Assembly: GCA_965221165.1 (NCBI GenBank)
Contig: CBDCRP010000002.1
Coordinates: forward strand, 1,088,001-1,152,000
Direction: 5' to 3'
Source of the DNA: a bacterium
GTDB taxonomy: Bacteria > UBA8248
Length of the DNA stretch: 64,000 bases
Part shown: positions 26,813-56,703 of the stretch, one piece after another
Layout: every line of letters begins with the position of its first letter
Numbering within the stretch: position 1 is the stretch's first letter
The notes under the pieces: generated by a model
Told to the model about the DNA's origin: nothing
Database searches by the model: none
What the model saw: the letters and a program-made list of their open reading frames with translations, nothing else
Position numbers and translations under genes: made by a program

Positions 26813-27184
26813 GTGTATAAAAAGCGAAAATCAACATACTCAAGCCTAGCGTGGTGGAATCAACCGACAAGGACACCTTGCTGGGGATTCATTCAAGATC
26901 ACGTGAAAGATGGGGGGACGGTGTACATGGATGAGCATCCTTCTTGCCAAGGCATTCAGGGATTCGGCCATGAATCCGTGAAACACAGCGTTGGTGAGTA
27001 AATGAAGGATCAAGCTCATATGAACGACGCATACTACAGTAAGGGCATAAAACATTTTTGGGGAAATGTGGTAGAATTTGTTGGATTCCACAATCCCCGC
27101 CCGTTGGACACTCAAAATCTAATGCGTCAGATTGCGAATGACCTATCCGGTCAAAGGCTACGCTACAAGGATTTGGTGGCGTAG
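26813..27184 (+). pseudogene. IS1595-family transposase remnant
   Basis: TVYMDEH, HESVKHSVGE then in-frame TAA; ends GQRLRYKDLVA, typical of IS1595 C-termini; internal deletion. Confidence 0.72.
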
Positions 27185-28143
27185 TGCGAGAACAAATGGC
27201 TCTAGACATCCATTTGCCGGAAGAATCCTCGCTGACCGGAAAGAAAGCTACTTTCCTTGAATTGTTACGTAGTTCAGGCAAGATGAAGTACCGTCGCTAC
27301 CTTGCATCGCCCTTGCGCTATGCAGGGGGGAAGAGTCTGGCCGTCGGCATGGTTGTTGAGCTTTTACCGGACGATATTGACCATATCGTATCGCCGTTTA
27401 TGGGTGGTGGCTCTATTGAAATTGCCTGCGCCAATGAACTTGGTCTCAATGTCGTGGCCTACGATATCTTCGATATACTTTGTACATATTGGCAAGTTCA
27501 AATATCGGTGCCGGATGAATTGGCGAATCGAATGCGAGCATTTACCCCGAACCGCAAAACCTTTGCCACTGTAAAGCGACGCTTGGAGCAACATTGGAAG
27601 GCTGGAAAATCTTTAGATGCTTACGATCTGGCCGCACACTATTATTTCAACTCAAACACATCATACGGGCCGCACTTTCTAGGCTGGCCATCGGACATTT
27701 ACCTCAACAAAACCCGCTACGAAAAGATGGTAGAGAAATCAGCAGCGTTTCGTGCGCCAACATTGATGGTTGAATGTGGTTCGTTCGAGGAAACTATTCC
27801 ACGGCATACTAAGGATTTCCTTTATTGCGACCCTCCCTATTATCTCGAAGAAGGAAAAACTTTTGTTGGCATGTATCCGCACCGAAATTTCCCGATCCAC
27901 CACAATGGGTTTCGTCATGACATATTGCGTGATCTCCTCTTGAAACATAAAGGCGGATTTATTCTTTCCTACAATAATTGCGAGACTATTCGAGACTGGT
28001 ATTCCGACTGCGAGATGATTGAACCTGAATGGCAGTATACCTTCGGGCAAGGTGATACACGAATCGGAAAGAATCGACTCGAATTAAATGGTGGTTCGTA
28101 TATTAAAAAGTCACACGAACTTCTAATCTGGCGGCATTCATGA
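27184..28143 (+). CDS. N6-adenine DNA methyltransferase (Dam/D12 class)
   Basis: SPLRYAGGKS, PFMGGGS, YCDPPY, FILSYN. Confidence 0.92.
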   Translation: MREQMALDIHLPEESSLTGKKATFLELLRSSGKMKYRRYLASPLRYAGGKSLAVGMVVELLPDDIDHIVSPFMGGGSIEIACANELGLNVVAYDIFDILCTYWQVQISVPDELANRMRAFTPNRKTFATVKRRLEQHWKAGKSLDAYDLAAHYYFNSNTSYGPHFLGWPSDIYLNKTRYEKMVEKSAAFRAPTLMVECGSFEETIPRHTKDFLYCDPPYYLEEGKTFVGMYPHRNFPIHHNGFRHDILRDLLLKHKGGFILSYNNCETIRDWYSDCEMIEPEWQYTFGQGDTRIGKNRLELNGGSYIKKSHELLIWRHS

Positions 28144-28925
28144 TTTCCCCTGGAAGGCGTGGAGGTTCATCGGAACAGGCTCGCGCCTATCGACAAGCAG
28201 GGCACGACGACGCGACAATTTTTGCTCTACTTCTTGGCCTTGCTGATGGATACCGCCGTGATCCTAAAGCCAAAAAAGATGTTATTGACCCAGCTGGTGA
28301 TGCTCACTCACTTAAATCAGGAAAAAAGAAGTGGCAAGTGTTCCTGTATAGACGAAGCCGATTTCTGGAAGACGACGGATTTCAGGCGTTGAATGGCATC
28401 GGAACATTACTTGCTCACTGTATTGATGCTTTCCCGCCGCGCTATGAGGATTATCGGGGCAATGAAGCTGCGGCTAAAATCCGTTTACAGGCACCGATGC
28501 GAGAACTAAAAGACAGGTTTCAGCGCAAGGCTCTACTCCGTGCTTTTCTCAAGAAAGCAATATTCAACGGCGGTGAAGTGAACTACCTGACAATCTGCCA
28601 CGAAGATCGCTATCATGTGTATTGGAATGATGATGTCGTAAAAATAATGGCGAATGGGTTTAGTGTTGAAAATTCAAAGGCGCGTCCAGGAAGAAGGAAT
28701 GAATTTGACGATCAAAAGGTGCTATTCAAATATAAAGGGCTGAATGTTGGTGAACTAGAGATGCGTAACGATAGCGCAAAGCATTACGGCCAAGTTCGGT
28801 TCAATATGATAAAGGATAGGTGCTTCGAGCTATTGCAAGACGCGATGCTTGAATCATCGGAATGGTCTCCCGAAATCATCGTTTATGGTTATGCAGTGCG
28901 AACATTTGGAAAATGGAATTCATAA
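28140..28925 (+). CDS. Putative type II restriction endonuclease
   Basis: ATGA-coupled to the MTase, same AT-rich composition, KKDVID...SLKSG PD-(D/E)xK-like motif. Confidence 0.62.
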   Translation: MISPGRRGGSSEQARAYRQAGHDDATIFALLLGLADGYRRDPKAKKDVIDPAGDAHSLKSGKKKWQVFLYRRSRFLEDDGFQALNGIGTLLAHCIDAFPPRYEDYRGNEAAAKIRLQAPMRELKDRFQRKALLRAFLKKAIFNGGEVNYLTICHEDRYHVYWNDDVVKIMANGFSVENSKARPGRRNEFDDQKVLFKYKGLNVGELEMRNDSAKHYGQVRFNMIKDRCFELLQDAMLESSEWSPEIIVYGYAVRTFGKWNS

Positions 28926-28935
28926 AGACATTCTC

Positions 28936-29112
28936 ATGAAAAATCGAACCCTCACGCTCAAGTCCACAGACTACCAGCCGAGCAAGGCTGAACTGGAGAA
29001 AAAGGTGCGCATAAAAACCACACCAGAGAACCTTGCCAAAGCGATGGTTCAGGACGTGAAAATCAAGCACTCACCCGACGCCAAGCAGGCTGAATGCTAC
29101 GCTGGCAAATAA
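28936..29112 (+). CDS. Small hypothetical protein (YQPSKAELE motif), likely IS1595-associated
   Basis: MKNRTLTLKSTDYQPSKAELEKKVRIKTTPENLAKA. Confidence 0.45.
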   Translation: MKNRTLTLKSTDYQPSKAELEKKVRIKTTPENLAKAMVQDVKIKHSPDAKQAECYAGK

Positions 29113-29145
29113 TTCCTTAAATTTTGATGAGAAAATAACGGGCGC

Positions 29146-29247
29146 ATGCGGGACGCTTTTCATCAAGGCGTAAGGCCCAACCGGCGCATCATCTTCCGCT
29201 TCGAGGGTGAGGATGCGCACGACGTTGAACTCATCGACTATCACTGA
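29146..29247 (+). pseudogene. higB: Truncated HigB (RelE-family killer protein), C-terminal third only
   Basis: Frame reads ...NRRIIFRFEGEDAHDVELIDYH*, the canonical HigB C-terminus, just upstream of higA. Confidence 0.75.
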
Positions 29248-29263
29248 ATAAAGGAGGACCCCC

Positions 29264-29557
29264 ATGCCCATGAAGAGTCCGCCGCATCCCGGCAAGGTCG
29301 TGCGCGTCTCCTGTCTGGAGCCGCTGGGCCTGAGCGTGACCGAAGGCGCCAAAGCGCTGGGCGTCAGCCGCCAGGCCCTCTCGAACCTGGTGAACGGGCG
29401 CGCGCGGATGTCGTCCGAGATGGCGATTCGCCTCGCCAAGGCCTTCGGCTCCACGACCGAGACCTGGATACGCCTTCAGACGGCTTACGACATCGCCCTG
29501 GCGCATGAGCGCGAGGATGAAATCGAGATCGAGCGCTGCGAGCCGCAACCGGCGTGA
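29264..29557 (+). CDS. higA: HigA family antitoxin (HTH)
   Basis: [42 protein letters not shown]. Confidence 0.92.
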
Positions 29558-30020
29558 GACGAACCGACTCTAAGCGAACTGCGCGGGCCAACCTCGACCG
29601 GAGAAGGGGACCCCCTGAGTCGCCTGCGAAATCGCACCCTCTCCCGCCACCAGCACGACGTGATTTAGCCGGACGCGCTCGCGGAAGCGCTCAGGAGTGG
29701 AATCCCGGACGAAGGCGTCCACGCGAAACGGGGGGTTGTTCTCCTCAAACGCTTCTTTCAGATCATAGACGAAGGCGGCTTTGGGCGGGTTCTGCGAACA
29801 CCGCCATGTCGAGATCGGATTCGGGGCGCGACGCGCCCTTCGCGCGGGAGCCGTATACCCAGGCGGCGGCCTGGGAAAAGGCGCTCATCATCGCAGGCGG
29901 AATGGATTCGTCAATAAATCGGGACGCGCATTTGCCCGCATTTGCGGTGTGCGCGGGCGAGCGGCTTCGGGTAAATTTCCCGCGGCGCTTACTCCGGGCC
30001 GCACCGGTAACATCGAATTC

Positions 30021-30074
30021 GAATATCTGAAAATATCTGAAAAATGGTGAAAATATCTGAAAATAAGTGAAAAT
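30021..30074. repeat. AT-rich 10-bp tandem repeat, about 5 units (consensus AAATATCTGA)
   Basis: gaatatctga aaatatctga aaaatggtga aaatatctga aaataagtga aaat. Confidence 0.75.
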
Positions 30075-41409: not shown

Positions 41410-41696
41410 GCGTCGGCGCTGAGGCTGCGGCGAACGGCGCAGCGTTAAACTCCGGTGATATTGCAGTTGCACTTATTGTCGGGGTACAGCAGCCCTCTCT
41501 CATCTGCGTTCAGATGGTATACCAACTGACATTGCTGAATGCTGGCGCGCAGTGGCGGCTCGACGCGAATGCCTCTCTCAACCATGCCGGCACGCGGCGC
41601 GAGCGCGAGGACGGCGAGGAGCACGAGCTCATGTTGCAGGCGATTCTGCGCTGGTAGCGGCCGAGGTTCGCATACCGCTCACGGGTTGCTTCTCCA

Positions 41697-42366
41697 GCCC
41701 GCGCTTGGGCTGCTTCTGGGGCACCTTGAGCCCCTCCTGCCGCCAGATGCGCTCGACCCGCTTGTGGTTCACCCGCCAGCCCTCATGCCTCAGGAGCGCT
41801 GTGACGCGCCGGTACCCATAGCGCCCGTATAGACTGGCCAGCTGGGTGATTCGATCGGTAAGCCTCCTCTCATCATCGCTCAGACACAGAGGGCGCCTTT
41901 GCGTTGAGCGGGGCTGTGCCAGCACCCGGCAGGCCCGCCGCTCAGATACCCGGAACCTCTCGCGTACATGCACCGCCGCCCGCCTTCTCTTTGGCGGGCT
42001 CAGAAGTTTCCCGAGGCGACCTCCTTGAGAATCGCCATGTCCAGGGCCTGGTCAGCTACGTGCTTCTTGAGGCAGCCGTTCTCACGCTCGAGTTCCTTGA
42101 GCCGCTTGGCCTGATCGAGCCTGAGGCCTCCGTACTCCTTCCTCCAGCGATAATAGGTCTGCTCGGATACTTCGATCTGCTTGCGGGCCTCAGGGACGGT
42201 CTGTCCCTGAGAGAGCAGAACCTCGGCTTCTCTCAACTTGCCGATAATCTGCTCAGGCGTATGACGCTTCCTGGACATGAAAAATTCCCCCGGATCGGGC
42301 GGCCCGGCCGAAAGAGTACCGAAAATCCTCTCATTCAGCATGGACCGATGTGAGGGGGGCACATCA
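41697..42366 (-). mobile_element. Truncated IS3-family element (orfA 42000..42278, partial orfB)
   Basis: End TGATGTGCCCCCC at 42366, orfA MSRKRHTPEQII, GGGAAAC frameshift site; orfB breaks after KQPKRG. Confidence 0.88.
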
Positions 42367-43219
42367 CATGAAAATTGAAGTTGTTGTTGATGAATTCGGA
42401 CCGCAATTCGAAATCTGAAGGCAACAAATTGCCCACAAAAATGGATTTTCCGATGCCACCTGCGCCTTTCAGAATGGGAATGTAATCCATTTTGGTTCCA
42501 GGATTGAACATCCTCTCGATCCCGCCGAGATAGATATATCTCCCCACAGCCCGATTGTATTCGTTATCCTCCACACCGAAGCAATCGAGCAGGCATCTCT
42601 CATGATACTGATCACCAGATTGGCCCATTTCCTCATAAATGGATTTGATAAACTCAGCCACTACGTTCTTTTTATTATCCAGCGCCAAACTTTCCACGGC
42701 ATCACGCATCATCACATTCGAGAATTCCGCCTCGGAAGAGTCTTTCCCACTACCAAATTTGAACTTCTCTGCTATTTCCGTGCGAAGTTGCAAAACATCG
42801 TCATCACCTAGGCGAGATGTCTCTTCATTTCTTTGAATGTAAATGGTGCCTGAAACGACATCTTTGAATAGATGGACCTTGAGTTGTTGCAGAGCATCTT
42901 TCGCGCCCATGATTTTTTTCTTCAGGACTTGATCGTTATCAATCTCTTTGTTCTCTTTGTTCGTGATTTCTTTCTGATATGTTTCCGCATCAATCCAGAT
43001 TTGCCGTAGTTCTTCATCAGAAAAACACTCATACCCATCAAAATTCTCCTGGTTCAATCTGAGAAACGATGCTTTACACTGATTGAAATTCGCAGGTGGA
43101 ATTTTCCCATCCAGATAGCTCATCCAAGCCTCGTTTGAGAAAGCTTCTAGTTCCGTGCGTAACTCGATTTTCTTGAAGTTTGTTTCGGGGTGTGACTTTG
43201 TTTCTGTGTTGTTCGACAT
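42367..43219 (-). pseudogene. VapE/virulence-associated E-like primase-helicase, truncated by IS3
   Basis: ERMFNPGTKMDYIPILKGAGGIGKS Walker A context; AT-rich; frame runs into the IS end. Confidence 0.72.
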
Positions 43220-43948
43220 GATTCTTCCTCCTTGATTTGGGTTAAAGTGCTCTGATCTCATTGCTATTGGGTTTTTTTGAGATTGGGGAGTGCGCCCACT
43301 CCCCAAAAACCCAAATCAAAGAAGCCAGAACATGGGTATTTATACGGAGACTCTGACTTTTCTTTGAGGAAAATGAAAAATAGTTATAATTTGCCTCTAG
43401 GCGTGCATATTTCGACGCTGAGAGCACATCTCTCCCATAGCCAGTCCGTTAGCATTGTTTCGTTTTTTGATTTACTTGAGCAGCGTTTCGATGAGTAGGT
43501 TCTTACCGAAGCCAAGGAGAGAAAGCGACAATCGTTTCTTCAGATCAACAATTTACACACGCTATAGATGTGCGAAATTCCATACTTCCACGAATCCCTT
43601 CAAAATAAACATATTCTATTGATTTATAAGGGGTTGTATTGTTTTCAGGAAATCAATAAATGTCAGGGAGTATCTACCCCTTGGTCGATTTTATTTTAGT
43701 AAATTGGCAGAAATGACATTTGTAACTCATTTAGTATCAATAAGTTATTATTTGATTTTCACGTTTCGCAACATTTGTTTTAGTTCTGGAATTTCCTCTG
43801 AGAACTTTTTGGTAAGTATCAAATTGGAGAGCAGTTTACCTAGATAGGAACTTACTCCGAAGCGTCAGAGAACTGCATGCTTGGAACTTACAAGAGGAGA
43901 TGGAAAGCTAGGTACCAACTGCCATCGTTAAGCGAGGAGCTTTACAGG

Positions 43949-44956
43949 ATGGGAACAGCCAGTCGTCACCTGCGCCTAATGCTGGCCTCGGGGGTGACTA
44001 CCATGCGCAACCCCAGCGAGCGCAGTTGGCGCGGCGTGGTGTGCCGGGAAGCGGTTCGTTCGGGGTTCCTCGCGGGCCCCCGCCTCTGGGTGGGCGCGCG
44101 TGGCATCCGGCCCACTCATGGATGGGGACAGAACGCGTTCCCTGTGGATGGAGAGGATTCTTTGCGGCGCTTTGTGCGGGAGAACATCGAGGGAGGCGCA
44201 GATTTCATCAAGATCTACGCGAGCGGGGAGGTCTTTCAGAACACCGCAGAGACGGCCTACATGAGCCGCTTGGAGGTGCGCGCCGTGGCGGAAGAGGCAC
44301 ATCGGGTTGGAAAGAAGGTAGCTGCTCACTGTCATGGCGGGGAGATTCTAAATATTTGCCTCGAGGAAGGGGTGGACTGCATCGAGCACGGCGCCATGTT
44401 GACGGGAGAACACCTTGACCTCTTTAAGACTCACGGCGCTTGGCTCATCTGCACTTTCAATCCTTATCTCCATCCAAGCGCCCTTGAGGGAGAGCGGTCT
44501 TCCGCTCACGTCGAAGGCGTCCGCCGTGCACGCGCAAACATGGAAAAACGCTTCCCGACGGCCTTGCGCTCGGGCATTCGCTTCACAGTAGGTACGGACG
44601 GGCGGCATGGGAATCTGACTTTTGAGCTTGAGTGCTTGGTGCGATTTGGTCTCTCGCCCCTTGAAGCCATTCAGGCCGCCACGCGTGACGCTGCAGAAGC
44701 GTGTGAGATGGGAGACCAGGTTGGTACCCTGGAGCCTGGAAAGCTCGCTGACCTCATCGCTACCGAGGGAAACCCATTGCAGGACATTTCTGCGCTTCAC
44801 CGGGTGCGGGTGGTGATGAAGGAAGGCCTCCTGTACGAGAACCTTGTCCAATCTTGGGAGTCCAGGGACTTGGAACCCGGGCCAGCATCTCAGGAGGGCA
44901 CGTCACTCGGGGTCGCTACGCCTCGCCCTCCGGCCATATTGGGGGGACTCTCATAG
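43949..44956 (+). pseudogene. Amidohydrolase (Xaa-Pro dipeptidase-like), N-terminally truncated
   Basis: GVTTMR, GADFIK, AAHCHG, IEHG, GTD, EPGKLADL; the N-terminal HxH metal motif is missing. Confidence 0.68.
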
Positions 44957-45381
44957 GGAGTGGTAAAGCTATCTGGGATAGATTCAAGCCAGAGGAGTGT
45001 CCTGAGGATATCTTTCGGTGGACTTAATTGCCTTCTCCGCGAGAGACACCGCCGAGGAAGGAAAATTAGGCCGGATTTTGCTGGATTAAGAGTGTTGCCG
45101 CATAATTCTGGCAAAAAGAGAAAACGCCGCTTTGAGGCCCGTGTTTTGGCCTGAGGAGGTGCCTCACATGGCGGCTTCTGCTAAACATGGTGAACTCTTT
45201 ACGAGAAAGACGGTCGAATGGCGAGCCAATGGCGCGAAACTTGAGAACGGGCGGCGGTTGCCGTATAATTTCAGAGTATATGGGAAATTTCGGTTGAAGG
45301 GACTTCGGGTGCTCGGGGATGGGGGAGGCCAAAAAGTGGCCTCGCACTTCGGTGTTGTTCCACTTCGTGGAGGAAAATAAA

Positions 45382-46410
45382 ATGAAGAATTGGGCGATCA
45401 GGTACCTTGGCATCGTGATTTGTACGGCAGCGATAGGAACAGCTCCTGCTATTGGTTCGGAGTATCCTCCCGAACTCGTTTCCGCCGCGAAGAAGGAAGG
45501 CAAGCTCGTTATCTACTGCTCTCACCGGCGCAAGATCATGATCCCGGCGAGCAAGGAGTTTGAAAGATTGTTCGGCATCAAGGTGGATCACACGCGGAAG
45601 TCGAGCAAGGGTGTCATCCGGATAGTCGAAGCCGAGCGCATGGCGGGACGGCAAAGGGTCGATATCATTTGCATCGGCGACAGGACGGCGCTGATCCGGT
45701 GGGGGAAAGAGAAGGAAGTGATCCCTTATCAACCGAAAAACAAAAGCATGATGGACCCCATCTTGCGACCGAGGGAAAACTTCATCAACGACAAGTATGT
45801 TCTTAATATGGCCATCACCTACAACACCAAGAAGGTGGCCAAGTCGGAAGTGCCGAAAACTTGGAAAGACCTTTTGGACCCCAAATGGAAGGACCGGATC
45901 GTCATGGCAGCTCCTTCAACGGGATCGGGGCTCGCCACTTTCGGCGTCTTATTAAAGAAATACGGTTGGAATTACTACAAAAAACTCGCGAGGAACCGTC
46001 CTCTGATCGTTATGCAGAGTAAGGCCGGCGAGGTTACGATCATTCGGGGAGAGCGGGATATCGGACCTGGCGTCGTCAGCGTAGCGAATAAGCTCAGGAG
46101 GAAGGGGGAACCCATCGGGATAGCATTAATGGAAGATGTCACGCCGATGTTTCTTGGCGGCTCCGTAATCTGGAAACACGGCGGCCACCCCAACGCGGCA
46201 AAGCTGTGGATGGAATTCGAGCTCAGCAAATTCTATCAGAATCTCATAGTCCAACAAAGTTATTTTGGGGTTCGCAAAGATATGCCTTTGCCCAAAGGGG
46301 CACCGTCCCTCAGCGGGTTGAATCGGGAAACGCCGGATTATAAATGGCTGCTGGCAAACAAGACGAAACTGCTGAAAAAGTTTGATAAAATCATGGGGAA
46401 ACACAAATGA
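45382..46410 (+). CDS. ABC transporter substrate-binding protein (Fe3+/thiamine/polyamine cluster)
   Basis: Signal peptide, AAKKEGKLVIY, YNTK, PKTWKDLLDPKWK, HPNAAKL. Confidence 0.88.
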   Translation: MKNWAIRYLGIVICTAAIGTAPAIGSEYPPELVSAAKKEGKLVIYCSHRRKIMIPASKEFERLFGIKVDHTRKSSKGVIRIVEAERMAGRQRVDIICIGDRTALIRWGKEKEVIPYQPKNKSMMDPILRPRENFINDKYVLNMAITYNTKKVAKSEVPKTWKDLLDPKWKDRIVMAAPSTGSGLATFGVLLKKYGWNYYKKLARNRPLIVMQSKAGEVTIIRGERDIGPGVVSVANKLRRKGEPIGIALMEDVTPMFLGGSVIWKHGGHPNAAKLWMEFELSKFYQNLIVQQSYFGVRKDMPLPKGAPSLSGLNRETPDYKWLLANKTKLLKKFDKIMGKHK

Positions 46411-46469
46411 GTAAAATGAATAACAGTAGATCCATCTGATATGTCGAACCACTTTGAGGAGGGTTTCAA

Positions 46470-47762
46470 TTGACGCATGAAACTCGCGAGCAGAGGATCC
46501 GCCGTATCAAGGAGAAGTTAAGCCGGGACCGCGGCCGGCCCAACGATGGCGTTCTCTTCGGGGTGGAGGTGGACCCCGATTATTTCGAGGCGTTCTCCCA
46601 GGTGGGCTGGGGCTTCTTCAATCGGGATAAGCCCCGCCATGTGCCCGAAAAGATGCGGGCGATTCTCGCCGCGATCGTCACATGCTCGGTCCTCTGGAAG
46701 AAGGATCCAACGGAACCTGGCGCTACACTCCACTGCGAGAGGGCGCTGGAGCATGGCGCCACCATGGAGGAGATTTTGGAGGCGTTCGAGGTTGCCGGCT
46801 TCGCGGGGGGACACCCGCTTCTCCTGATGGGCCTGAGAGTTCTCAAGGAAATCGCCGGCAAAAAGGGCGGACTGAAAGAGCCCGGGAACGGGTTAGAGAG
46901 TCCACGCGCTGGAGCCTCCTCGGAGACTCGCGAGGAAAGGGTCCGCCGCATTACCGAGAAGATGGATCGGGACCGGGGCTATACCGACGAGGCCCTAGGC
47001 TTTGGCGCCCGACTGGACCCGGATTACTTCGAACCGTACTCCGAGATAGGCTGGGGCTTCTTCAATCCGGATAGACCTCGCCACCTGCCCCAGAAGAATC
47101 GGGAAATCATCGCCGTCGTCGTCGTGGCTCTCAGGGGGAGCGAGGAGGACGCCTACCACCACTGCAAAAGGGCGCTCCAGCATGGCTCCACCATGGAGGA
47201 AGTCCTGGAGGCGTTCGAGGTGAGTGGCCTCCCCGGGGGAACTCCGCACCTACTGAGGGGCCTGAGGATCCTCAAACGGATTGCCGACGAAGGGGGAGGA
47301 CTGAAAGATCCAATTGGTGGGCCTGGGGGCCCTCGCGGAAAAAGAATCCGCCGTATCACCGAGAAGATGAGCCGGGACCAAGGCCGGATCGACGAGGCCC
47401 TAGGCTTTGGCGCCCGACTGGACCCGGATTACTTCGAACCGTACTCCGAGATAGGCTGGGGCTTCTTCAATCCGGACAAGCCCGGCCGCTTCTTGCCCCA
47501 CAAGACGCGCGAAACAATTGCCGCGGCCCTGATGGCCTTCAGGACGGACGAGGAGGGCGTCGCCATCCACTGCAAGAGGGCGCTGGAGTACGGCGCCACC
47601 ATCGAAGAAATGGTAGAGGTGTTCGAAGTGTGTCTCGTCCCCGCGGGAGCCGGGGCCCAATTATTTGGGCTGAGGGCCCTTAAGCGCATCGTTGAGAGGG
47701 CGGGTGCGTCATGTGATGGAGGTTCTTGGATGAGTGAGCTGAAAGAGGAGGTTCTTGAATGA
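46470..47762 (+). CDS. Triple-repeat CMD/AhpD-fold protein
   Basis: Three repeats of RGxxDEALGFGARLDPDYFE.YS.IGWGFF...K.RE.IA...HCKRALEHGATMEE.LEAFEV. Confidence 0.82.
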   Translation: MTHETREQRIRRIKEKLSRDRGRPNDGVLFGVEVDPDYFEAFSQVGWGFFNRDKPRHVPEKMRAILAAIVTCSVLWKKDPTEPGATLHCERALEHGATMEEILEAFEVAGFAGGHPLLLMGLRVLKEIAGKKGGLKEPGNGLESPRAGASSETREERVRRITEKMDRDRGYTDEALGFGARLDPDYFEPYSEIGWGFFNPDRPRHLPQKNREIIAVVVVALRGSEEDAYHHCKRALQHGSTMEEVLEAFEVSGLPGGTPHLLRGLRILKRIADEGGGLKDPIGGPGGPRGKRIRRITEKMSRDQGRIDEALGFGARLDPDYFEPYSEIGWGFFNPDKPGRFLPHKTRETIAAALMAFRTDEEGVAIHCKRALEYGATIEEMVEVFEVCLVPAGAGAQLFGLRALKRIVERAGASCDGGSWMSELKEEVLE

Positions 47763-48409
47763 GCGAGCTGAAAGAGCCCATCGTGGTGGTGAAGTATTCC
47801 GATTTCACCTGACCCTACTGCTATGTGGCCACCGTCGGTGGAATCCCGATTCTGGAGCAGGATCCGGACGTGGAGGTCGAGTGGGTGAGCTGGGAGGGAA
47901 GGCCGCCCGGCGCCCCGTTCAAGTCCTTCACGCCGGAGGAGCGGCAGGAAGTCTACCAGAAGGTGCACAAGCCCCTAGCGGACAAGTACGGAGTGGATAT
48001 CATCGTCGTCTCAAAGAACAGCTACCGCACCACGAACGCCCACATGACCTCCTTCTACGCCCGGGACATGGGCAAGTTCGTGGGGTTCCGGGACCGGGTG
48101 TACCAGGCCCTCTGGGTGGACAACCTCGACCTGGAGAGCCCCGACGTGCTCGCCCGGCTCGGGGAGGATGTGGGCCTCGACGGGGATGAGATCCGGAAGG
48201 TGATCGAGGAGAAGCGCTACTTCGGCGCGCTCCAGAGCCAGCGCGCCCAGGGAAAGAGTCTCGGGATCTTCGGCATCCCCTGCTTCGTGGTGGAGGGCAA
48301 GATATTCTGGGGAAAAGACGTGATCGACGATCTAAAAGAGGAGGTCGCGCGGCTGAAAAAAGAGAAGCTCGCCGAGCAGGTAAAAGAGGAATGGGGCTGT
48401 CCTAGCTAA
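47759..48409 (+). CDS. DsbA/FrnE-family thiol-disulfide oxidoreductase, predicted selenoprotein (UxxC)
   Basis: ATG 47759 after GGAGG; reads MSELKEPIVVVKYSDFT-TGA(47810)-PYCYVA in frame with ORF 47825..48409; GIFGIPCFVV cis-Pro motif. Confidence 0.85.
47829..47841 (+). promoter_or_regulatory. Candidate bacterial SECIS hairpin
   Basis: CCACC-GTC-GGTGG stem-loop with an apical G 22 nt after the UGA. Confidence 0.55.
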
Positions 48410-49112
48410 GCGGCTTGTTTAGTCTAGGATGGCGTGATGTACGAGAGGAAAAGCCGGCTCAGTGATTGGAAGCGCGGTCGTCTGATTGAGCACTTCGTTG
48501 CCGGTACGACGGCTCGGGCGGCAGCCGAACTGGTTGGCGTCCACCGGAACACGGCGGTCTCATTTTATACTCGGCTTCGCAAGGTGATTGCCGAGGCAAT
48601 GGAGAAAGCCTCGCCTTTTGCCGGAGAGATCGAGGTTGATGAGAGTTATTTTGGCGGCCGCCGCAAAGGCAAGCGGGGTCGAGGCGCTGGCGGAAAAGTC
48701 CCGGTTTTCGGGCTTTTGAAGCGAGGTGGGAAGGTCTACACGGCGATGATCCCCAATGCCCGGACTGCCACGTTGATGCCGATTATGGAGCGTATGATCC
48801 GGCCTGACAGCATCGTCTATACGGACGGTTTTTCGAGCTATGATGCCCTGGACGTTTCGGACTTCCACCATGTTCGGATCAATCACTCGGAGCGGTTCGT
48901 CGATGAGCGGAGCCATATCAACGGGACCGAGAACTTCTGGAACCAGGCGAAGCGGCATTTACGGCGCTTCAATGGCGTCCCGAAACAGAGCTTTCACCTG
49001 TTCCTGAAGGAGTGCGAATGGCGGTTCAACGGAGGTGATCACCGAGAACTGCTTAACCAATTGAAGACATGGATCATTTTGAGACAGAAACGTACTTAGC
49101 TAGGACAGCCCC
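48393..49112 (+). mobile_element. IS1595 family, IS1016 group insertion sequence
   Basis: 18-bp perfect TIR GGGGCTGTCCTAGCTAAG; flanking AAGAGGAA duplication. Confidence 0.93.
48434..49099 (+). CDS. IS1016-group DDE transposase
   Basis: EVDESYFGG, GRGAGGK.PVFG, VYTDG, HING.ENFW, KECEWRFN. Confidence 0.93.
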   Translation: MMYERKSRLSDWKRGRLIEHFVAGTTARAAAELVGVHRNTAVSFYTRLRKVIAEAMEKASPFAGEIEVDESYFGGRRKGKRGRGAGGKVPVFGLLKRGGKVYTAMIPNARTATLMPIMERMIRPDSIVYTDGFSSYDALDVSDFHHVRINHSERFVDERSHINGTENFWNQAKRHLRRFNGVPKQSFHLFLKECEWRFNGGDHRELLNQLKTWIILRQKRT

Positions 49113-49235
49113 AAGAGGAAAGCTAAGCGCAACTTCGTGCTTAAATGGACAGAGAGATCTATTCGTTAAAGCCGCGTTAGAGCAGACACAATGAGGGGAG
49201 AAATGAGCTAGTACAAAAGCGAAATTCGAGGCGGC

Positions 49236-49481
49236 ATGCGCATCGACTGGGACGTTCCGCTCGAAATTGACGATGACGTAGTTCTGCGTGCCGACGTCTT
49301 TCGGCCCGTCGAGGAGAGGAATATTCACAAAGACAGAGGCTTCGTCTACGATGTTTTGGGTTTCGGCGCCCAGCTCGACTCCGACTCTTTCGAAGTCTAC
49401 TCCCAGATGCACTACGGCTTTTTCAAAGAAGAACCTCGCAACCTCGATCCCAAGACCCGCGAGCTGATCGAGAATCAATAG
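49236..49481 (+). pseudogene. Chimeric remnant: CocE/NonD hydrolase N-terminus joined to a CMD-repeat fragment
   Basis: MRIDWDVPLEIDDDVVLRADVFRP followed by DRGFVYDVLGFGAQLD.D.FEVYS...GFF...K.RELI. Confidence 0.6.
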
Positions 49482-49498
49482 AAATTTAAGGAAATGGT

Positions 49499-51235
49499 AT
49501 GGCGGTAGCAACGTCAAGTCGCGGTTCTCTCTGGTTGGGCCTCGTGGGGGCAGTGCGCGGCTGGCGCCATGAAGCCCTTCGCTCGCTTATTTTTCTCGCC
49601 ACCGCCATTATCCTCGGATTTTTTGTCCTCTACCCTCTTGGAATTTTGTTCAAGCGAAGCCTGTACGACTACGACGTACAAGTGTGGACCCTGAACAACT
49701 ACAGGACCTTTTTCTCTGATCCGGAACTTCTCGATGCTTTCTGGACCACGATCAAGCTTGCAATCGGGACATCCATATTTTCCCTCGTTGTAGCGCTTCC
49801 GATGGCGTGGGGAGTTTCCCGGACGGACATGCCTTTCCGGGGATTCATCCGCTCCATGGTGGTGCTCACCTTCGCCACCCCGAGCTTCCTGGGGGCGATT
49901 GGATGGATTGTCCTGCTCGGTCCCCGGGCGGGCATATTGAACAAGGCATTCATGTGGATTTTCTCGACCGACACACCGCTGTTCAACATCTTCAGTTTCG
50001 CCGGGATGACCTTCGTAATGGGGTTGTTCGTCTATCCTTTCCTTTTCTTCTCGGTCGTCTCGGCGCTCGACAACATGGACCCGAGCTACGAGCAGTCCGC
50101 CCGGATCCTGGGTTCCAACAACTTCCGGGTGATGCGGACCGTGACCCTTCCCATTGTCACCCCGGCTATCCTGTCAGGGCTCATACTCGTAATTTTGGAG
50201 AGTTTTGTCGTTTTCGGAGCGCCGGCCATTGTGGGAAACCCTGTCCATATCCAGACCCTATCGACCCAGGTCTATACCCTGTTTTCGAACGATCCGCCCC
50301 AATTCCACATGGCCGCGACGGCAGCGACGCCGATTGTCATCGTGACCGCAATCTTGCTGGTCCTCCAGCGCTTTTATCTGGGGCGGAAGCAATACGTCAC
50401 CATCACCGGCAAATCTCCTCAGCCCCAATTGGTGGATATCGGCCAGTGGAAATATGCTCTCGGGGCATATTCGTTCGGCATCGTCTTCGTGAGCATCATT
50501 CTCCCGATGCTGGCGCTTTTCGAGTCCTCCATCCTGCGCATCTGGGGCGCTCCGCTTTCATTTTCCAATCTCACTTTCGAGAACTACATCAACCTGTTCA
50601 CCACCTCGGACGTCGTGGTGCGCGCGTTCACGAACAGTTTCAAGCTCGCTGTCGGCGCCGCCTTTGTCTGTATCGGGTTTACCTTTGTCATGGCGTGGAT
50701 CGTCGAGCGAACGAATGTGCCCGGAAAGGAGGGCCTCGCGCTGCTTTCGATGATCGGAATGGCGTTTCCCGGGGTCGCCCTCGGGGTGGCGCTCGTGCTC
50801 GCGTTCGCGGGCGGCCCGCTCCCGCTCTACGGCACCCTTTGGCTGTTCCTCATCGGCTACTTCGTCAAGGGAACGCCCATCGCCTTCATGTTCGCCCGGG
50901 CCTCCCTGAAGCAGATTCACGAGGAGCTTGAGCAGAGCTCGCGCGTCCTCGGGGCGCACTGGGCCAAGACGATGAAGGACATCACCCTTCCTCTCATGAA
51001 GAAGGCGTTGCTCTCCGTCGGAACGATCATTTTCTGCCTGAAATTCCGCGAAATGGCGACTTCCATCATGCTCTACACGGGCGGGCTCGAGGTGATCTCG
51101 ATCCTCATCTTCGAATACATCGAAGAGGCGGAGATGGGAACCCTGGGCGCCCTGACGTTCCTCGTATTTTGCGTTAATCTGACTCTTATCGGGCTTTCCC
51201 GCAGAATCGTGGGAAAGGGCGCGTTCGAGATGTGA
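49499..51235 (+). CDS. ABC transporter permease (FbpB-like, duplicated TMD)
   Basis: Two EAA loops (DPSYEQSARILG, EELEQSSRVLG). Confidence 0.9.
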   Translation: MAVATSSRGSLWLGLVGAVRGWRHEALRSLIFLATAIILGFFVLYPLGILFKRSLYDYDVQVWTLNNYRTFFSDPELLDAFWTTIKLAIGTSIFSLVVALPMAWGVSRTDMPFRGFIRSMVVLTFATPSFLGAIGWIVLLGPRAGILNKAFMWIFSTDTPLFNIFSFAGMTFVMGLFVYPFLFFSVVSALDNMDPSYEQSARILGSNNFRVMRTVTLPIVTPAILSGLILVILESFVVFGAPAIVGNPVHIQTLSTQVYTLFSNDPPQFHMAATAATPIVIVTAILLVLQRFYLGRKQYVTITGKSPQPQLVDIGQWKYALGAYSFGIVFVSIILPMLALFESSILRIWGAPLSFSNLTFENYINLFTTSDVVVRAFTNSFKLAVGAAFVCIGFTFVMAWIVERTNVPGKEGLALLSMIGMAFPGVALGVALVLAFAGGPLPLYGTLWLFLIGYFVKGTPIAFMFARASLKQIHEELEQSSRVLGAHWAKTMKDITLPLMKKALLSVGTIIFCLKFREMATSIMLYTGGLEVISILIFEYIEEAEMGTLGALTFLVFCVNLTLIGLSRRIVGKGAFEM

Positions 51236-51247
51236 GGCGGGAAACCG

Positions 51248-52333
51248 ATGCCGGATCTATCCATTAACGGCCTGACGAAGGCCTTCGGCGAGACCATCGC
51301 CGTCAATGACCTTTCGCTCGAATTCAAAGAGGGCGAATCGGTGGTGCTGCTCGGCCCGAGTGGGTGCGGAAAGACCACGCTCCTCAAGCTGATCGCGGGT
51401 TTCCTCCAGCCAGGCGCGGGCGAGATCGCCATTGGCGGCCGGGTCATCTCGACCCGCCACGAGATGCTTCCCCCGGACCACAGGAAAATGTCGATGGTGT
51501 TCCAGTCCTACGCCATCTGGCCGCACAAGTCGGTGTTCCAGAACGTGGCCTACGGGCTCGAAGTGCGGAAGATTAAAAAGGCCGAGATCGAAAGGAAAGT
51601 GATGAACGCCCTTTCCCTCGTCCAACTCGACGGCCTCGAGGGCCGCTACTCCACCGAGCTCTCGGGCGGACAGCAGCAGCGCGTGGCCCTGGCGCGAGCG
51701 ATCGTGGTCGAACCCTCCCTTCTTCTGCTGGACGAGCCTCTCTCGAACCTCGACGCCAACCTCAGGGTTGAGATGCGCGGGGAGCTGGCCGACCTCCACG
51801 ACCGGCTGGGCATCACGTTCATCTACGTCACCCACGATCAGGCCGAGGCGATGGTCCTGGGGGATCGGGTCGTTTTGATGAATCAGGGAGTCATGGTCCA
51901 GCAGGGCCCGCCCGAGGAGATCTACGAGACCCCAAAGACCCGTTTCGCGGCGAATTTCATAGGGACCTCGAACATTTTCACCGGGTCGGTGGCCAGCGGG
52001 GCCGGTGCCAACGGCGCGATCCGGGTGGACACGAAGTTCGGGCCGGTCGCCGTGGCGCTGGGCGCCAGGCAGGCCCCCCCCACGGGGGAGGAGGCGCACT
52101 TCTGCATCCGGTCCGAACTCGTTCAGATTCATCCGGGCGCGCCTTCTCCCGAGTCCAACCGGTATACGGCACGGATCCTCAAGCGGCAGTACTACGGCAA
52201 GCACGTTCAGTACGTCATGGATCTCGCGGGCGAGGAGCTTCAGGTGGAGTCTTTATCGGACATGAACGTCTCGGCGGGATCGGAAGTGACTATCGAATTA
52301 CCTCCGGAGCATTGTGTGTTCCTGGAGGAGTAA
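51248..52333 (+). CDS. ABC transporter ATP-binding protein (FbpC/PotA type, TOBE)
   Basis: [27 protein letters not shown]. Confidence 0.93.
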
Positions 52334-52381
52334 CCGGAAACCACTCGGTGCATCGGCACACATCACACAGGGGAGAACATC

Positions 52382-52441
52382 ATGGGTAGAAAGCTGTTTG
52401 TCATCGTGGCGGCCGCGGCTTTTGCGGCGGCGGGGTTGCCG
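52382..52441 (+). pseudogene. 5' stub (signal peptide) of a secreted protein interrupted by IS3
   Basis: GGAG RBS, MGRKLFVIVAAAAFAAAGLP ending at the IS terminus. Confidence 0.55.
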
Positions 52442-53714
52442 TGACCTGCCCCCGATAGTTGTACCACTCCCTATGAGAGTCCTGGAACCATGGCCGGAGG
52501 GCGAAGCGGAGCGAAGCCCGGAGGCCATGGTTCATTCGTTTCAGGTGCCGGGGGCCGATAGCCCAGTGAACTGTGCGGCCTGATTCTGTTGTACACATGC
52601 CTCCAGCGCTCCACCAATACTTTTGCTTCATATAGCGTATCGAATCTCTCCAGATTCAGAAGTTCATCCCGCATCTTCCCGTTAAAAGATTCGACATATC
52701 CATTCTCCCAGGGGCTTCCAGGCTCGATGAAGAGCGTCTTCACGCCCAGGCGGGAGAGCCACTCTCTCACGCGTTTCGACGTAAACTCAGGGCCGTTGTC
52801 CGAACGAATGTGCTCGGGGAGCCCCCGCTTTACAAACAACTCGGTCAGCCGGTCTACTACATCCTCTGACTTGAGCTTTCTGCCCACATCAATCGATAAA
52901 CACTCACGCGTGAACTCATCCACCACCACGAGCATCCGAAGAGGGCGCCCATCGCGGGTTCTGTCGGCACAGAAGTCATACGCCCATACATGATTCGGGT
53001 GCTCTGGCCGCCTTCTCACGCAGGAGCCATCATTCAACCACAATCGCCCGCGCTTGGGCTGCTTCTGGGGCACCTTGAGCCCCTCCTGCCGCCAGATGCG
53101 CTCGACTCCTTTGTAGTTCACCCGCCAGCCGTCCAGCCACAACAGCCTAGTCACCCGGCGATACCCATAGCGCCCATACAGGCTCGCCAGCTCCACCACA
53201 CGGGCGGTGAGCCTCTCCTCATCGTCCCTGCAACGGGGCTGGTAGCGCTGTGTCGAGCGAGCTTGCCTCACGACACGGCAGGCATGCCGCTCGGACACGC
53301 GAAAGCGCTCATATACACGCTCCACAGCCCGCCTCCTCTTGGGCGGGCTCAGAAGTTTCCCGAGGCGACCTCCTTGAGAATGGCATTGTCCAGTGCCTGG
53401 TCAGCCACGAGCTTCTTGAGGCGGCCGTTCTCGCGCTCGAGTTCCTTGAGGCGCTTGGCTTGATCGAGGCGAAGCCCCCCGTACTCTTTCCTCCAGCGGT
53501 AATACGTCTGCTCGGAAACTTCGATCTTCTTGCAGGCTTCAGGGACACTCCGCCCTTGGGAAAGCAGGATCTCAGCTTCTCTCAGCTTGCCGATAATCTG
53601 CTCTGCGGTGTGGCGCTTCTTGCTCATGTAAATCCCCCCGATACGGGCGATCATACCGAAAGAGTACCGAAAATCCTCTCATTCAGCATGGACCGGTTTG
53701 AGGGGGGCAGATCA
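52442..53714 (-). mobile_element. IS3-family element (orfA 53349..53627, orfB 52471..53325, -1 frameshift)
   Basis: TIRs TGACCTGCCCCC / TGATCTGCCCCC; W.YDF, SDNGPEF, ESFNG DDE motifs; no target duplication seen. Confidence 0.93.
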
Positions 53715-53809
53715 GTATTGTATTCAGCGGTCGACCCGGTAAATCAAGATTGATTTCAGAATTTAAGACACAAGCCGTTCGGTTGTAAAGCGTATAATCC
53801 TGAGAGAAG

Positions 53810-54027
53810 ACTGGACCGAGCGCTATCGCACCACCCCCGTGCTCATTGAGACCTTCGTCGAGACCCCGCGCTACACCGTCGCCGTCTACAGGGCATCGGG
53901 CTGGAGCCACGTCGGTACGACCCAGGGACGCGGACGCTACGACAGGCGCAAACGCTACGACAAGCCCAAGAAGGACATCTGGCTGCAGCCGCTGCGGAGA
54001 AACTGGAAGCATATCCTCAATCGCTGA
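53810..54027 (+). pseudogene. DUF4338-domain C-terminal fragment
   Basis: LIETFVETPRY...YRASGW.HVG.TQGRGRYDR...K.IWL.PL. Confidence 0.65.
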
Positions 54028-54534
54028 AATACCTGCCATCACCCCGCGACTGAATGTTTACCCCGACAAGCGCGGACATGTCGTGCCTGGATATTGATCA
54101 AATCCGGTTGCAAAACGATTACGCTACCTGGCAAGACATAATCAGGCGGGTTGCGGTGAGCACTGATAAAGAATTGAAAAATAAATAGATAAACGATATT
54201 TGAGAGCGTGGAAATTCCCTGGAACTGCACAAGAACGACGCAGGTCGTGAAGCCGCACGTCATGAAGGCCCGCCCGCGCCCGGATGCGTTGCCAGGGATG
54301 GTCGATCTGGCGCATGTGCGTCCCCGGCTTCCTGCCGGGTATGACCCATGAATTGACCTACCACCGAAGAACGGAGAAAGAATTTTTCGATACCCTTGAT
54401 CGCATTCTGATGTTCGCCCTTTGCCACGACGAATTCCCCCGCTCGATATTTTGGGTATAAATCAAGCGATCAAAATCGATAAGAACCGCTTGCGGTTTCG
54501 CGGCGGAGTTCGCAAACAAAGCTGGCGTGCGCCG

Positions 54535-54864
54535 TCAGCCTGGATTCGCCATCACCGCATCTTTACCTTGCCGCCCGTCAACATGGAGCGTGACCCGCAG
54601 ACCGCCGTCGAGGGCAGCAAGCATCTTCATCAGCCGGTCCAGCGTAAACCGCCCCAGGTCCGCGTTGCGAATGCGCGAGAAATCGGCCGCGGCGAAGCGG
54701 GTCAGGGCGGCGGCCTTTCTCACCGAAAGCCCGCGGTCGTCCAGCACCGCGATGATCCGGGCCGCGAGAATCGCCTTGGCCTGTTTCAGGTCCGCAAGCG
54801 GATCGTCGAGGTCGCGAAACACATTACCGCTTCCCTCGATTAGTTCGAAATCGCTTTCACTCAT
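54535..54864 (-). CDS. XRE/HTH antitoxin
   Basis: GSGNVFRDL, KAILAARI, ADFSRIR...RFTLDRL; overlaps the toxin stop. Confidence 0.85.
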   Translation of the reverse strand: MSESDFELIEGSGNVFRDLDDPLADLKQAKAILAARIIAVLDDRGLSVRKAAALTRFAAADFSRIRNADLGRFTLDRLMKMLAALDGGLRVTLHVDGRQGKDAVMANPG

Positions 54865-55226
54865 GGCAACAACTCCCTTTTCAGTCGCCCCAGCCGGTCC
54901 CTCACCAGATCGATCTCGGCCTTCGGAGTCTTAATCCCCGTTTTCGATTTCTTCCGGAACGCGTGGATCACCCATAGCCGTCCCGCAACTTCCGTCACGT
55001 AGACGACCCGCCAAGCATCGGTCCGGTACCGCACGGCGATTTCCATGACACCCGGCCCGAGACCCTTCAGCGGTTTCACGATGTCCGCTTTGCCGCCTTC
55101 AGCCGCAATCGTCAGCGCCGTGTTGACGCGATCCCGAACGGTCACGGGGAACGTCTCGAAAACCTTTCGCGCAGCCCTGACCCAGCCGATCGGCCTCGTA
55201 TTGTGGTTCATTCCGGATGTTGTCAT
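54861..55226 (-). CDS. RelE/ParE (Gp49/DUF891-like) toxin
   Basis: KPLKGLGPGVMEI, WRVVY, HAFRKKSKTGIKTP. Confidence 0.85.
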   Translation of the reverse strand: MTTSGMNHNTRPIGWVRAARKVFETFPVTVRDRVNTALTIAAEGGKADIVKPLKGLGPGVMEIAVRYRTDAWRVVYVTEVAGRLWVIHAFRKKSKTGIKTPKAEIDLVRDRLGRLKRELLP

Positions 55227-55362
55227 TATTGACTACACATGTCAAGCAAGCTAGGCGAGGTGACGCGGGATAGCGGATTCCTACCCCGGACACGGCTGCC
55301 GGGCCGCGCGCAAAACCCGACGGTGCACACTTCCGGCACCGACCCTCGCGGCACGCGACACC

Positions 55363-55510
55363 TCATTTCCGGTACCCCGACAGGAAATCGGCTGCAATAC
55401 TGTCGCCGAACCGTTCCGCCGACTCCCGCACCGAATCCTGCGCTAGGTGCGCATGCATCGCGGTCGTTTCTACCTGCGTGTGACCGAACAGCCGGCCGAG
55501 CATCATCGGA
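55363..55510 (-). pseudogene. C-terminal remnant of a second tyrosine integrase
   Basis: Minus frame reads GRLFGHTQVETTAMHAHLAQDSVRESAERFGDSIAADF; catalytic Tyr of the TTARYAH motif replaced. Confidence 0.65.
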
Positions 55511-55580
55511 TGGCTTTCGGCCTGCGCCAGCGTCCCTCGACGCGCAGCCGTGGCTTAAATTGCGTTCGCATTACCCTTTT

Positions 55581-56703
55581 TCATATCACAGCGGTTTCGG
55601 CGGTAGCGTCCACGTTCATCAAGGCATCGATCCTGTCGGCGATGCGCTGTGAGGGTTCGCGGAGCTGCTCCACGGTCCAGTCGGCGGCGTAGCCTTCGGT
55701 GATGTCATCATCACGGGCATGGTTGACCAGCCGTTTGGTCAGCGAGCGCGGCAGCATCAGTTCGCGCTCCGCCACCGTGATGAAGACATTGCGCAGGCCG
55801 TGGAACCAGAACCGGGTCCCGGCGGCGCGCCCGATATCGACGTAATACTGGTGAATGCCGCCGAGATGGCCCGTCGAACTCATGGAGGACGGGAACACCC
55901 AGCCGTCCGGGTCCTCTCCGTCCGCCCGGCGGCGCTCGAAGATCGCCGCCAGCTGCCGGGTCATGGGAAGCTCCAGCGGTTCCCCGGTCTTGGTCTCATC
56001 GACCCGCAGGATACGCCGCTCCAGTTCCAGGCGCTCCCATCTGAGGGAGACGATCTCGCCCAGGCGCATGCCGGTGTAGACCCCGACCAGGAAGATGTCG
56101 CGGTGCGCGGGCGGAAGCCCGACGGCATCCACACCGGCTCGCCAGCGCGGCAGCACCTCGGAAGGGGCGGAGATGCGCCGCCGCCGCTTGGGGTGGTAGC
56201 GCCCGCCCCCGGCGAGCCAGAGTTCCACCGGGTTGAGCAAGCCCTCGTGATCGACGCAGGACCGGCGGTAGATGGAACGCAGCAGTGAAATCGTCTGATT
56301 GGCGCCCGCCCAGCCGTGCTCCTCGGTGATGAGGTTGAACCGCCCCTCGATGTCCCTCCGGGTAATGGCGTCGAGCGGACGGTTGTGCCAGCCGTGGAGA
56401 TTGATCCGCATGTTCTGGTGGTAGCGCTCCACCGTCCTTGCCTTGCGGTTGGGGTTGGCGGCCATGTAGTCATCGAACGCTTCTCGGAGGGTCGGCATTC
56501 TCCGCGCTTCTACGCGTTCTGAGGCGGGGTCGTCCCCTCCGGCGACGCGGCCGAGCAGTTCCTGGGCCATGCGCCGCGCCTTGTCGGGGGTTATGCGTCC
56601 GTAGCGCCCGAGGGTGACGCGCTTGTTGGGCACCTTGCGCCCGCCGTCTCCGGCGCGGTAGTTGACGACGAAGGTCCTGGTGCCCGAAGGCTGGACGCGA
56701 AGT
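55581..56703 (-). CDS. Tyrosine recombinase/integrase with N-terminally truncated arm-binding domain
   Basis: LRVQPSGTRTFVVNYR...TLGRYG, YTGMRLGEI, TKTG, HGLR, LVNH, TEGY; stop codon just upstream of 56703. Confidence 0.82.

Follow-up and report, generated by a model that had tools for sequence, protein, structure and literature searches.

A probable selenocysteine-containing DsbA-family oxidoreductase hidden by an in-frame TGA in a genome of the UBA8248 lineage

The DsbA family of thiol-disulfide oxidoreductases includes members in which selenocysteine (Sec, U) stands first in the active-site motif, giving UxxC in place of CxxC. DsbA-like UxxC selenoproteins (COG2761) were reported in 2005 from the Sargasso Sea metagenome (PMC1088965) and were found in 2006 in several cultured bacteria (PMC1794560); a 2026 review carries them as the entry "DsbA-like protein form 1, PF01323, UxxC" (PMC13188914). 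This work presents a gene that adds to this known selenoprotein family and opens no new class of system. It lies on the forward strand of contig CBDCRP010000002.1 (assembly GCA_965221165.1, lineage UBA8248), within a stretch of 64,000 nucleotides (contig positions 1,088,001 to 1,152,000) that we refer to as the window and from whose first letter all window positions are counted. The gene is misannotated, its active-site codon being a TGA, and is very probably a genuine selenoprotein gene of a known family; the copy in the window is an accessory paralogue in DNA rich in insertion sequences (IS). An earlier note on the same DNA had proposed a hidden DsbA-family UxxC selenoprotein here and had stated that such proteins exist. 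The published description bears out the latter (PMC1088965), and the former is supported by the pairing of TGA with Cys among homologues and by a conserved hairpin downstream of the TGA.

When open reading frames (ORFs) are called with translation table 11, the gene begins at GTG 47825, which lies 3' of the TGA, and the listed product lacks an active site. The frame in fact extends upstream to ATG 47759. Translation from this codon to TAA 48407-48409 passes through a single in-frame TGA, codon 18, which falls at the first Cys of the active site and is flanked as ...KYSDFT-U-PYC-YVATVGG.... Both the truncated ORF and the longer frame are as the earlier note had described them. The ATG shares bases with the TGA stop of the preceding ORF (ATGA), which encodes a protein with three CMD repeats. 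In a crude scan of the window for other in-frame TGAs near Cys, Ser, or Thr motifs, 183 candidates were returned, and the one at 47810 alone was conspicuous; more selenoprotein genes may be present in the window. TGA is the stop codon of 22 of the 41 Pfam-supported ORFs in the window, where it is the commonest stop, and is therefore not reassigned in this organism. Global reassignment of TGA (genetic codes 4 or 25) was ruled out by this stop-codon usage.

With Cys written for U, the protein matches the Pfam DSBA domain (PF01323) over residues 10 to 196 of 216 (E = 8e-29; 101.2 bits against a cut-off of 25.6). An AlphaFold2 model based on a 15-row alignment (predicted local distance difference test score, 89.5) shows a thioredoxin fold that carries a helical insertion: strand 8-14 leads through unstructured residues 15-18, U18 among them, into helix 19-33, and helices spanning residues 59-167 are inserted between strands. 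Foldseek against the Protein Data Bank (PDB) ranked FrnE first (E = 2e-12; template modeling [TM] score, 0.74 to 0.77), followed by 2-hydroxychromene-2-carboxylate isomerases, kappa glutathione transferases, and DsbAs. FrnE of Deinococcus radiodurans (PDB entries 5cnw, 5co3, and 5cp1) is also the closest solved match by sequence (E = 6e-14). It shares with the protein described here the DsbA fold, the lack of an evident signal peptide, and the place of the active site, where its C-P-W-C aligns with U18-P-Y-C21, Cys standing against Sec and Trp against Tyr. Pro174, invariant in the family as G-I-P, aligns with G-V-P of FrnE in the loop opposite the active site. The two proteins differ in that they are about 26 to 28% identical and FrnE, with 260 residues, is longer in its C-terminal part. 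FrnE has a C-terminal Cys pair, and the tail of the family described here is acidic, ending ...E-E-S.

Classical periplasmic DsbA of the Escherichia coli type likewise combines a thioredoxin fold and helical insertion with an xxC motif and a conserved Pro (P174 here), but its structural similarity is distant (TM score of about 0.5 to 0.6). A further difference lies at the N terminus, where inspection of our protein revealed no evident signal peptide, strand 1 starting at residue 8 with no hydrophobic leader before it. Judged from sequence and predicted fold, the protein is probably a FrnE-like member of the DsbA family and probably a cytoplasmic selenol/thiol-disulfide oxidoreductase. By their published descriptions, the DsbA-like UxxC selenoproteins of form 1 (PF01323/COG2761) resemble it in having a DSBA domain, Sec as the first residue of UxxC, and Cys-containing homologues (PMC1088965, PMC13188914), as well as a hairpin close behind the UGA whose small apical loop contains a G (PMC1088965). 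The clade described here differs from them in carrying Nitrospinota/Tectomicrobia labels, and the window copy differs in being an extra paralogue in an IS-rich island.

To compare the TGA across relatives, genome contigs were scanned, and the best 80 of 147 relatives found were kept, covering 79 loci (L001 is the window's own chromosome, OZ253442.1). Codon 18 is TGA in all 37 of the full-length close loci (58 to 100% identity). Upstream of it, these loci keep E-P-I-V-V-V-K-Y-S-D-[FY]-T, and the 17 codons preceding the TGA are conserved as protein. Two tandem Sec-DsbA genes occur in one of them (L006, 9300-10630), both with TGA at codon 18, which brings the count to 38 of 38 among close genes from 37 loci in 36 genome records; the TGC or TGT codons that the earlier note had imagined for all close homologues of a mutated gene were not seen. 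At the amino acid level, codons 6-17 and 19-28 hardly change, and their third positions are variable outside the hairpin described below (third-position entropy of 1.40 at Thr17 and of 1.80 at Pro19, on either side of the TGA). Synonymous change is free on both flanks, and both sides are therefore translated. A separate observation concerns one close locus (L020, 5659-5829) that has a premature TAA at codon 57 besides the TGA at codon 18 and is a pseudogene or an assembly error.

Among the 40 distant homologues (L040 to L079), the TGA column holds Cys in 37 and TGA in 3, which gives the Cys/TGA pairing that the earlier note had suggested looking for. The three with TGA (L040, L045, and L079; about 10031-10096) are Dehalococcoidia DsbA-like genes (26 to 32% identity) that read I-W-Y-D-Y-I-U-P-W-C and have their own, different hairpins at a similar distance downstream of the TGA. 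From sequence, this trio appears to form a distinct branch of the DsbA-like family with Sec of its own. A protein search returned 59 homologues, 57 of them close (56 to 100% identity), and 16 of the 59 were aligned; both distant proteins in the alignment have Cys at the site. Of the 57 close matches, 56 cover no more than 88% of the query, and 13 of the 14 aligned close records begin at or after residue 23. The catalytic N terminus is thus missing from nearly all public protein records of the clade, and record names such as "DsbA family protein" conceal a selenoenzyme. The sole aligned close record to cover the N terminus (P0013) has W at residue 18, as would be given by a gene caller using a code in which TGA is Trp.

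The second line of evidence is the hairpin with a G in its loop that the earlier note had placed after the TGA, which we confirmed as having the loop G-U-C and as conserved in relatives. Applied to the 60 nucleotides from the TGA in the 37 loci, RNAalifold gave exactly one stem, of 6 bp. The family stem is GCCACC/GGUGGC with a 3-nucleotide loop, G-U-N, and corresponds to a start at 47828, 15 nucleotides after the TGA. The window's 5-bp stem starts one base later, 47829-47833 pairing with 47837-47841 around the loop at 47834-47836. For a test of synonymous sites, we took the 23 fourfold-degenerate codons whose first two bases do not vary among 36 full-length genes, L020 being dropped for its premature stop. 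Stem codons 24, 25, 27, and 28 have third-position entropies of 0, 0.18, 0, and 0.72, ranking 1, 3, 2, and 5 from the lowest of the 23, whereas loop codon 26 has 1.50 and most other fourfold codons have 1.3 to 1.9. The chance of finding four stem codons among the lowest five of 23 is, by our own arithmetic, about 6e-4. Gly27 is GGT in all 36 genes, and GGT is rare at the remaining Gly codons. Frozen synonymous sites can thereby validate a tiny, invariant Sec insertion sequence (SECIS) hairpin where covariation tests are blind. A scan of the window at Rfam gathering thresholds gave no matches.

Given these results, we consider it very likely that 47759-48409 encodes a FrnE-like, probably cytoplasmic member of the DsbA family with UGA-encoded Sec as its nucleophilic residue, U18 of U-P-Y-C. 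In the mechanism that we propose, the ribosome would meet the UGA at 47810, and the short hairpin about 15 nucleotides downstream (loop G-U-N, within the codons for A-T-V-G-G) would recruit SelB carrying Sec-tRNA(Sec), such that Sec would be inserted in place of termination. The product would act as a selenol/thiol-disulfide oxidoreductase or isomerase. The identity of the inserted residue as Sec rather than another, the dependence on SelB, the enzymatic role, and the co-transcription discussed below are the parts of this account that we infer. The host organism should then depend on selenium and possess a full Sec pathway, and the earlier note had likewise supposed selA, selB, selC, and selD to lie elsewhere in the host. 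The genome of one relative (L002) is listed in BSepDB as Sec-using, with 54 selenoprotein genes; BSepDB searched solely genomes holding at least 2 Sec-pathway genes (PMC13326102). The host accession, "DsbA," and UBA8248 do not occur in the one BSepDB supplement text file consulted.

Several observations weigh against this interpretation. Neither selA, selB, selD, nor a tRNA-Sec gene was found within the 64-kb window, ARAGORN included, and ARAGORN found no tRNA-Sec in the 42 loci scanned. In the window copy, as in L035 and L036, the outermost stem pair is a G-A mismatch, leaving 5 pairs. Folding of 96 nucleotides of the window did not exceed chance (z = +0.32; 120 of 200 shuffled sequences folded equally well or better), and, the single-sequence fold being ordinary, the significance of the hairpin comes from the comparison across genomes. 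A covariation test found no compensatory changes (both sides had changed in 1 cell, which is not above the level in shuffles); as the stem never varies, this test is uninformative, and it is conservation that supports the hairpin. Lastly, an IS has altered the C terminus of the window copy, the last residue alone being replaced by W-G-C-P-S.

The features of the locus are collected in Table 1.

Table 1. Features of the Sec-DsbA locus and its neighbors in the window
Feature	Position	Strand	Basis or remark
Amidohydrolase gene	43877-44956		
ATP-binding cassette (ABC) transporter substrate-binding protein (SBP) gene	45319..46410	+	SBP_bac_6; PhnS2-like, below cut-off
Triple-CMD protein gene (YurZ/PcaC-like)	46470..47762	+	430 residues; immediately 5' of Sec-DsbA
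Tandem duplication, 29 nucleotides	47718..47775	+	Ribosome-binding site, ATG, and first 5 codons; repeat comparison
Ribosome-binding site, GGAGG	47747..47751	+	7 nucleotides before ATG 47759; read directly from sequence
Probable Sec-containing DsbA/FrnE-like oxidoreductase gene	47759..48409	+	216 codons; reading of the frame, Pfam DSBA, AlphaFold2 model, FrnE match
In-frame TGA, U18, first residue of the UxxC active site	47810..47812	+	Comparison with homologues
SECIS-like hairpin in codons 24-28 (A-T-V-G-G)	47828..47842	+	Consensus structure in 37/37; frozen synonymous sites
IS1595-family IS, 722 bp	48392..49113	+	19-bp perfect terminal inverted repeats; target duplication
Remnant of a truncated CMD repeat (81-codon ORF)	49236..49481	+	Pairwise comparison with upstream CMD protein
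Fused two-domain ABC permease gene	49499-51235	+	
ABC ATPase gene	51248-52333	+	

A further copy of the gene in the host genome, L022, lies in what we term the standard context and shares 69% identity with the copy in the window. A 40-row tree that omitted L020, for its premature stop, as well as L038 and L039, which are partial, places L022 in a clade of 21 standard-context genes with 100/99 support and the window copy outside it. Judged by sequence, the window copy represents a second paralogue that has diverged. In most close loci the context is that of L022 (3936-17087): hpnE, a NUDIX-hpnC-hpnD fusion, DUF3891, and metX with a NIL domain precede the Sec-DsbA gene, which is followed by a CrtO-like oxidoreductase, RidA, tRNA-Val(CAC), a Gfo/Idh/MocA oxidoreductase, and priA. 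The family represents a conserved gene of Nitrospinota-labelled genomes, normally placed between metX and a CrtO/CrtI-like oxidoreductase gene and beside hpnCDE.

Around the window copy, the DNA bears marks of rearrangement. The two copies of the 29-nucleotide duplication (47718-47746 and 47747-47775) are 93% identical, and the first encodes the last residues of the triple-CMD ORF, whose homologues end shortly after L-K-R-I-x-D-E; the duplication may be a recombination scar. Downstream, the ORF at 49236-49481 shares 45% identity with the first half of every upstream CMD repeat (E = 6e-15) and matches CMD alone in Pfam (E = 0.23). The earlier note had read this ORF as a CocE/CMD remnant; the CMD part of that description holds, and the CocE part was not confirmed. 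Flanked as it is by the duplication of its 5' end on one side and the truncated repeat on the other, the Sec-DsbA gene appears to have been inserted within a region of CMD repeats.

An IS1595-family element, absent from the earlier note, is inserted in the last codons of the Sec-DsbA gene. Its transposase ORF (48434-49099) scores 165.1 bits against the NCBIfam IS1595 cut-off of 75 and matches Pfam DDE_Tnp_IS1595 (E = 1e-33), and the direct repeat AGAGGAA at 48385-48391 and 49114-49120 marks a target duplication of 7 to 8 bp. In transposase, inverted repeats, and target duplication, the element fits the IS1595 family, with nothing unusual. The last 5 codons of the Sec-DsbA gene (W-G-C-P-S) and its stop come from the terminal repeat of the element; read across the IS, the gene would end in ...K-E-E-S, like its relatives. 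In the course of events that we favor, the window paralogue would have entered an operon of CMD-repeat and ABC-transporter genes within an IS-rich island, with the IS1595 element striking later, and the Sec-DsbA gene would not be an ancestral partner of that operon.

Conservation of the neighborhood was examined by tblastn of seven window proteins against the 39 close loci, 20 of the other 38 having a full 10 kb on both sides. Homologues of the SBP, the triple-CMD protein, the permease, and the amidohydrolase were found at none of the 38 other loci, and outside L001 the sole match to any neighbor in the window was in L018, to a generic ABC ATPase at a distance of 7.6 kb. The earlier note had proposed conservation with CMD and ABC genes as a check, and the association proved not to be conserved. 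The neighbors that do recur are hpnE (22 loci), the NUDIX-hpnC-hpnD fusion (30), a CrtO/CrtI-like oxidoreductase (17), priA (13), DUF3891, and metX. The nonstandard contexts all differ. A relative of the window copy (72% identity) in L005 (681-4333) lies between a MerB-like organometallic lyase, which scores below cut-offs and also resembles SaoL, and a 512-residue flavin adenine dinucleotide (FAD) disulfide oxidoreductase, which is MerA-related and below the MerA cut-off. L018 has UbiD and an alcohol dehydrogenase, and L032 has a sulfatase and an M20 peptidase.

The CMD/ABC importer context here and the MerB-like/MerA-related context in L005 underlie one alternative, in which Sec-DsbA genes, with the SECIS inside the coding sequence, would be mobile selenol-redox cassettes among Sec-competent Nitrospinota that join varied detoxification or uptake operons, the window copy having recently been recruited into its operon as a translationally coupled, functioning component. 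We consider this unlikely.

Also unlikely is the pathway proposed in the earlier note, in which SBP, triple-CMD protein, Sec-DsbA, permease, and ATPase would form one dedicated route of import and thiol/selenol redox chemistry. The arrangement itself speaks for such a pathway: all of the genes are on the same strand, the DsbA gene has its own GGAGG, and its ATG overlaps the preceding stop. One near-consensus site resembling a promoter precedes the SBP gene (45241-45269), and between the triple-CMD and DsbA genes no terminator-like site was seen, but the counts of neither kind of site exceed those in shuffles. Because of the gene overlap and the lack of a terminator-like site, the Sec-DsbA gene is, as far as the sequence indicates, probably co-transcribed with the CMD/ABC operon. 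The triple-CMD form with the same tail recurs in P0062 alone (99% identical), the other 17 homologues being two-domain proteins of 277 to 310 residues, and this recurrence indicates a stable junction in the population. Selenoproteins of the CMD/AhpD-like kind, moreover, are on record (PMC1088965).

Against the pathway stand the absence of its genes from the other loci, the quite different set of usual neighbors, and nonstandard contexts that do not agree with one another. The CMD repeats, too, offer little: they have no conserved CxxC or CxxU (the CXXU motif as defined in Table 3 of PMC1088965), which weakens the idea of thiol-redox coupling, and the single Cys of each repeat (H-C-[KE]-R-A-L) is replaced in most homologues by Ala, Ser, Met, or Thr, mostly by Ala. 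The duplicated 5' end and the truncated CMD repeat are, in addition, marks of insertion. For want of a conserved context or a redox motif, and given the rearrangement scars, the pathway of the earlier note is not supported, and the link of the Sec-DsbA gene to the neighboring transporter genes looks accidental.

That the UGA is read through by a residue other than Sec (e.g., Cys or Trp via a near-cognate or suppressor tRNA), with the hairpin as a general stimulator, is very improbable. The hairpin is indeed short, with its 3-nucleotide loop, and P0013 has W at the codon, though this reflects the caller's choice of code. TGA is, however, the commonest true stop in the window, and the recoded site is the redox Cys that pairs with Sec in the described family (PMC1088965, PMC13188914). 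The genome of a relative, L002, appears with its 54 selenoproteins among catalogued Sec users (PMC13326102), and a small, G-containing loop just 3' of the UGA fits the published description of the bacterial SECIS (PMC1088965). It is hardly credible that the TGA arose by nonsense mutation or from an error of sequencing, in a pseudogene or in a gene whose product starts at GTG 47825 without an active site, for although public gene callers start the protein after the TGA, L020 has its separate TAA, and the window copy sits in IS-rich DNA, the TGA is present in 38 of 38 genes, the 17 codons upstream of it are conserved as protein with free synonymous change, and a product from residue 23 would lose strand 1 and the whole UxxC motif.

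The island around the window copy of the Sec-DsbA gene spans 41629-56633. Two IS3-like copies (41697-42366 and 53046-53714) are 81 to 86% identical and in the same orientation, and a 65-nucleotide inverted repeat is present at 44913-44977 and 52450-52514. A VapE-like gene (42335-43306), a Gp49-like gene (54861-55226), and a tyrosine integrase gene (55581-56633) also lie within it; no tRNA gene was found at the edges of the island. The earlier note had placed the locus on mobile DNA, which is plausible in view of the IS3-like copies, the VapE-like gene, the integrase, and the nearby IS1595 element. Elsewhere in the window, a D12-class N6-adenine DNA methyltransferase (27184-28143) is followed by ORFs with no Pfam match (28140-30030), a region that is possibly a restriction-modification or other mobile module.

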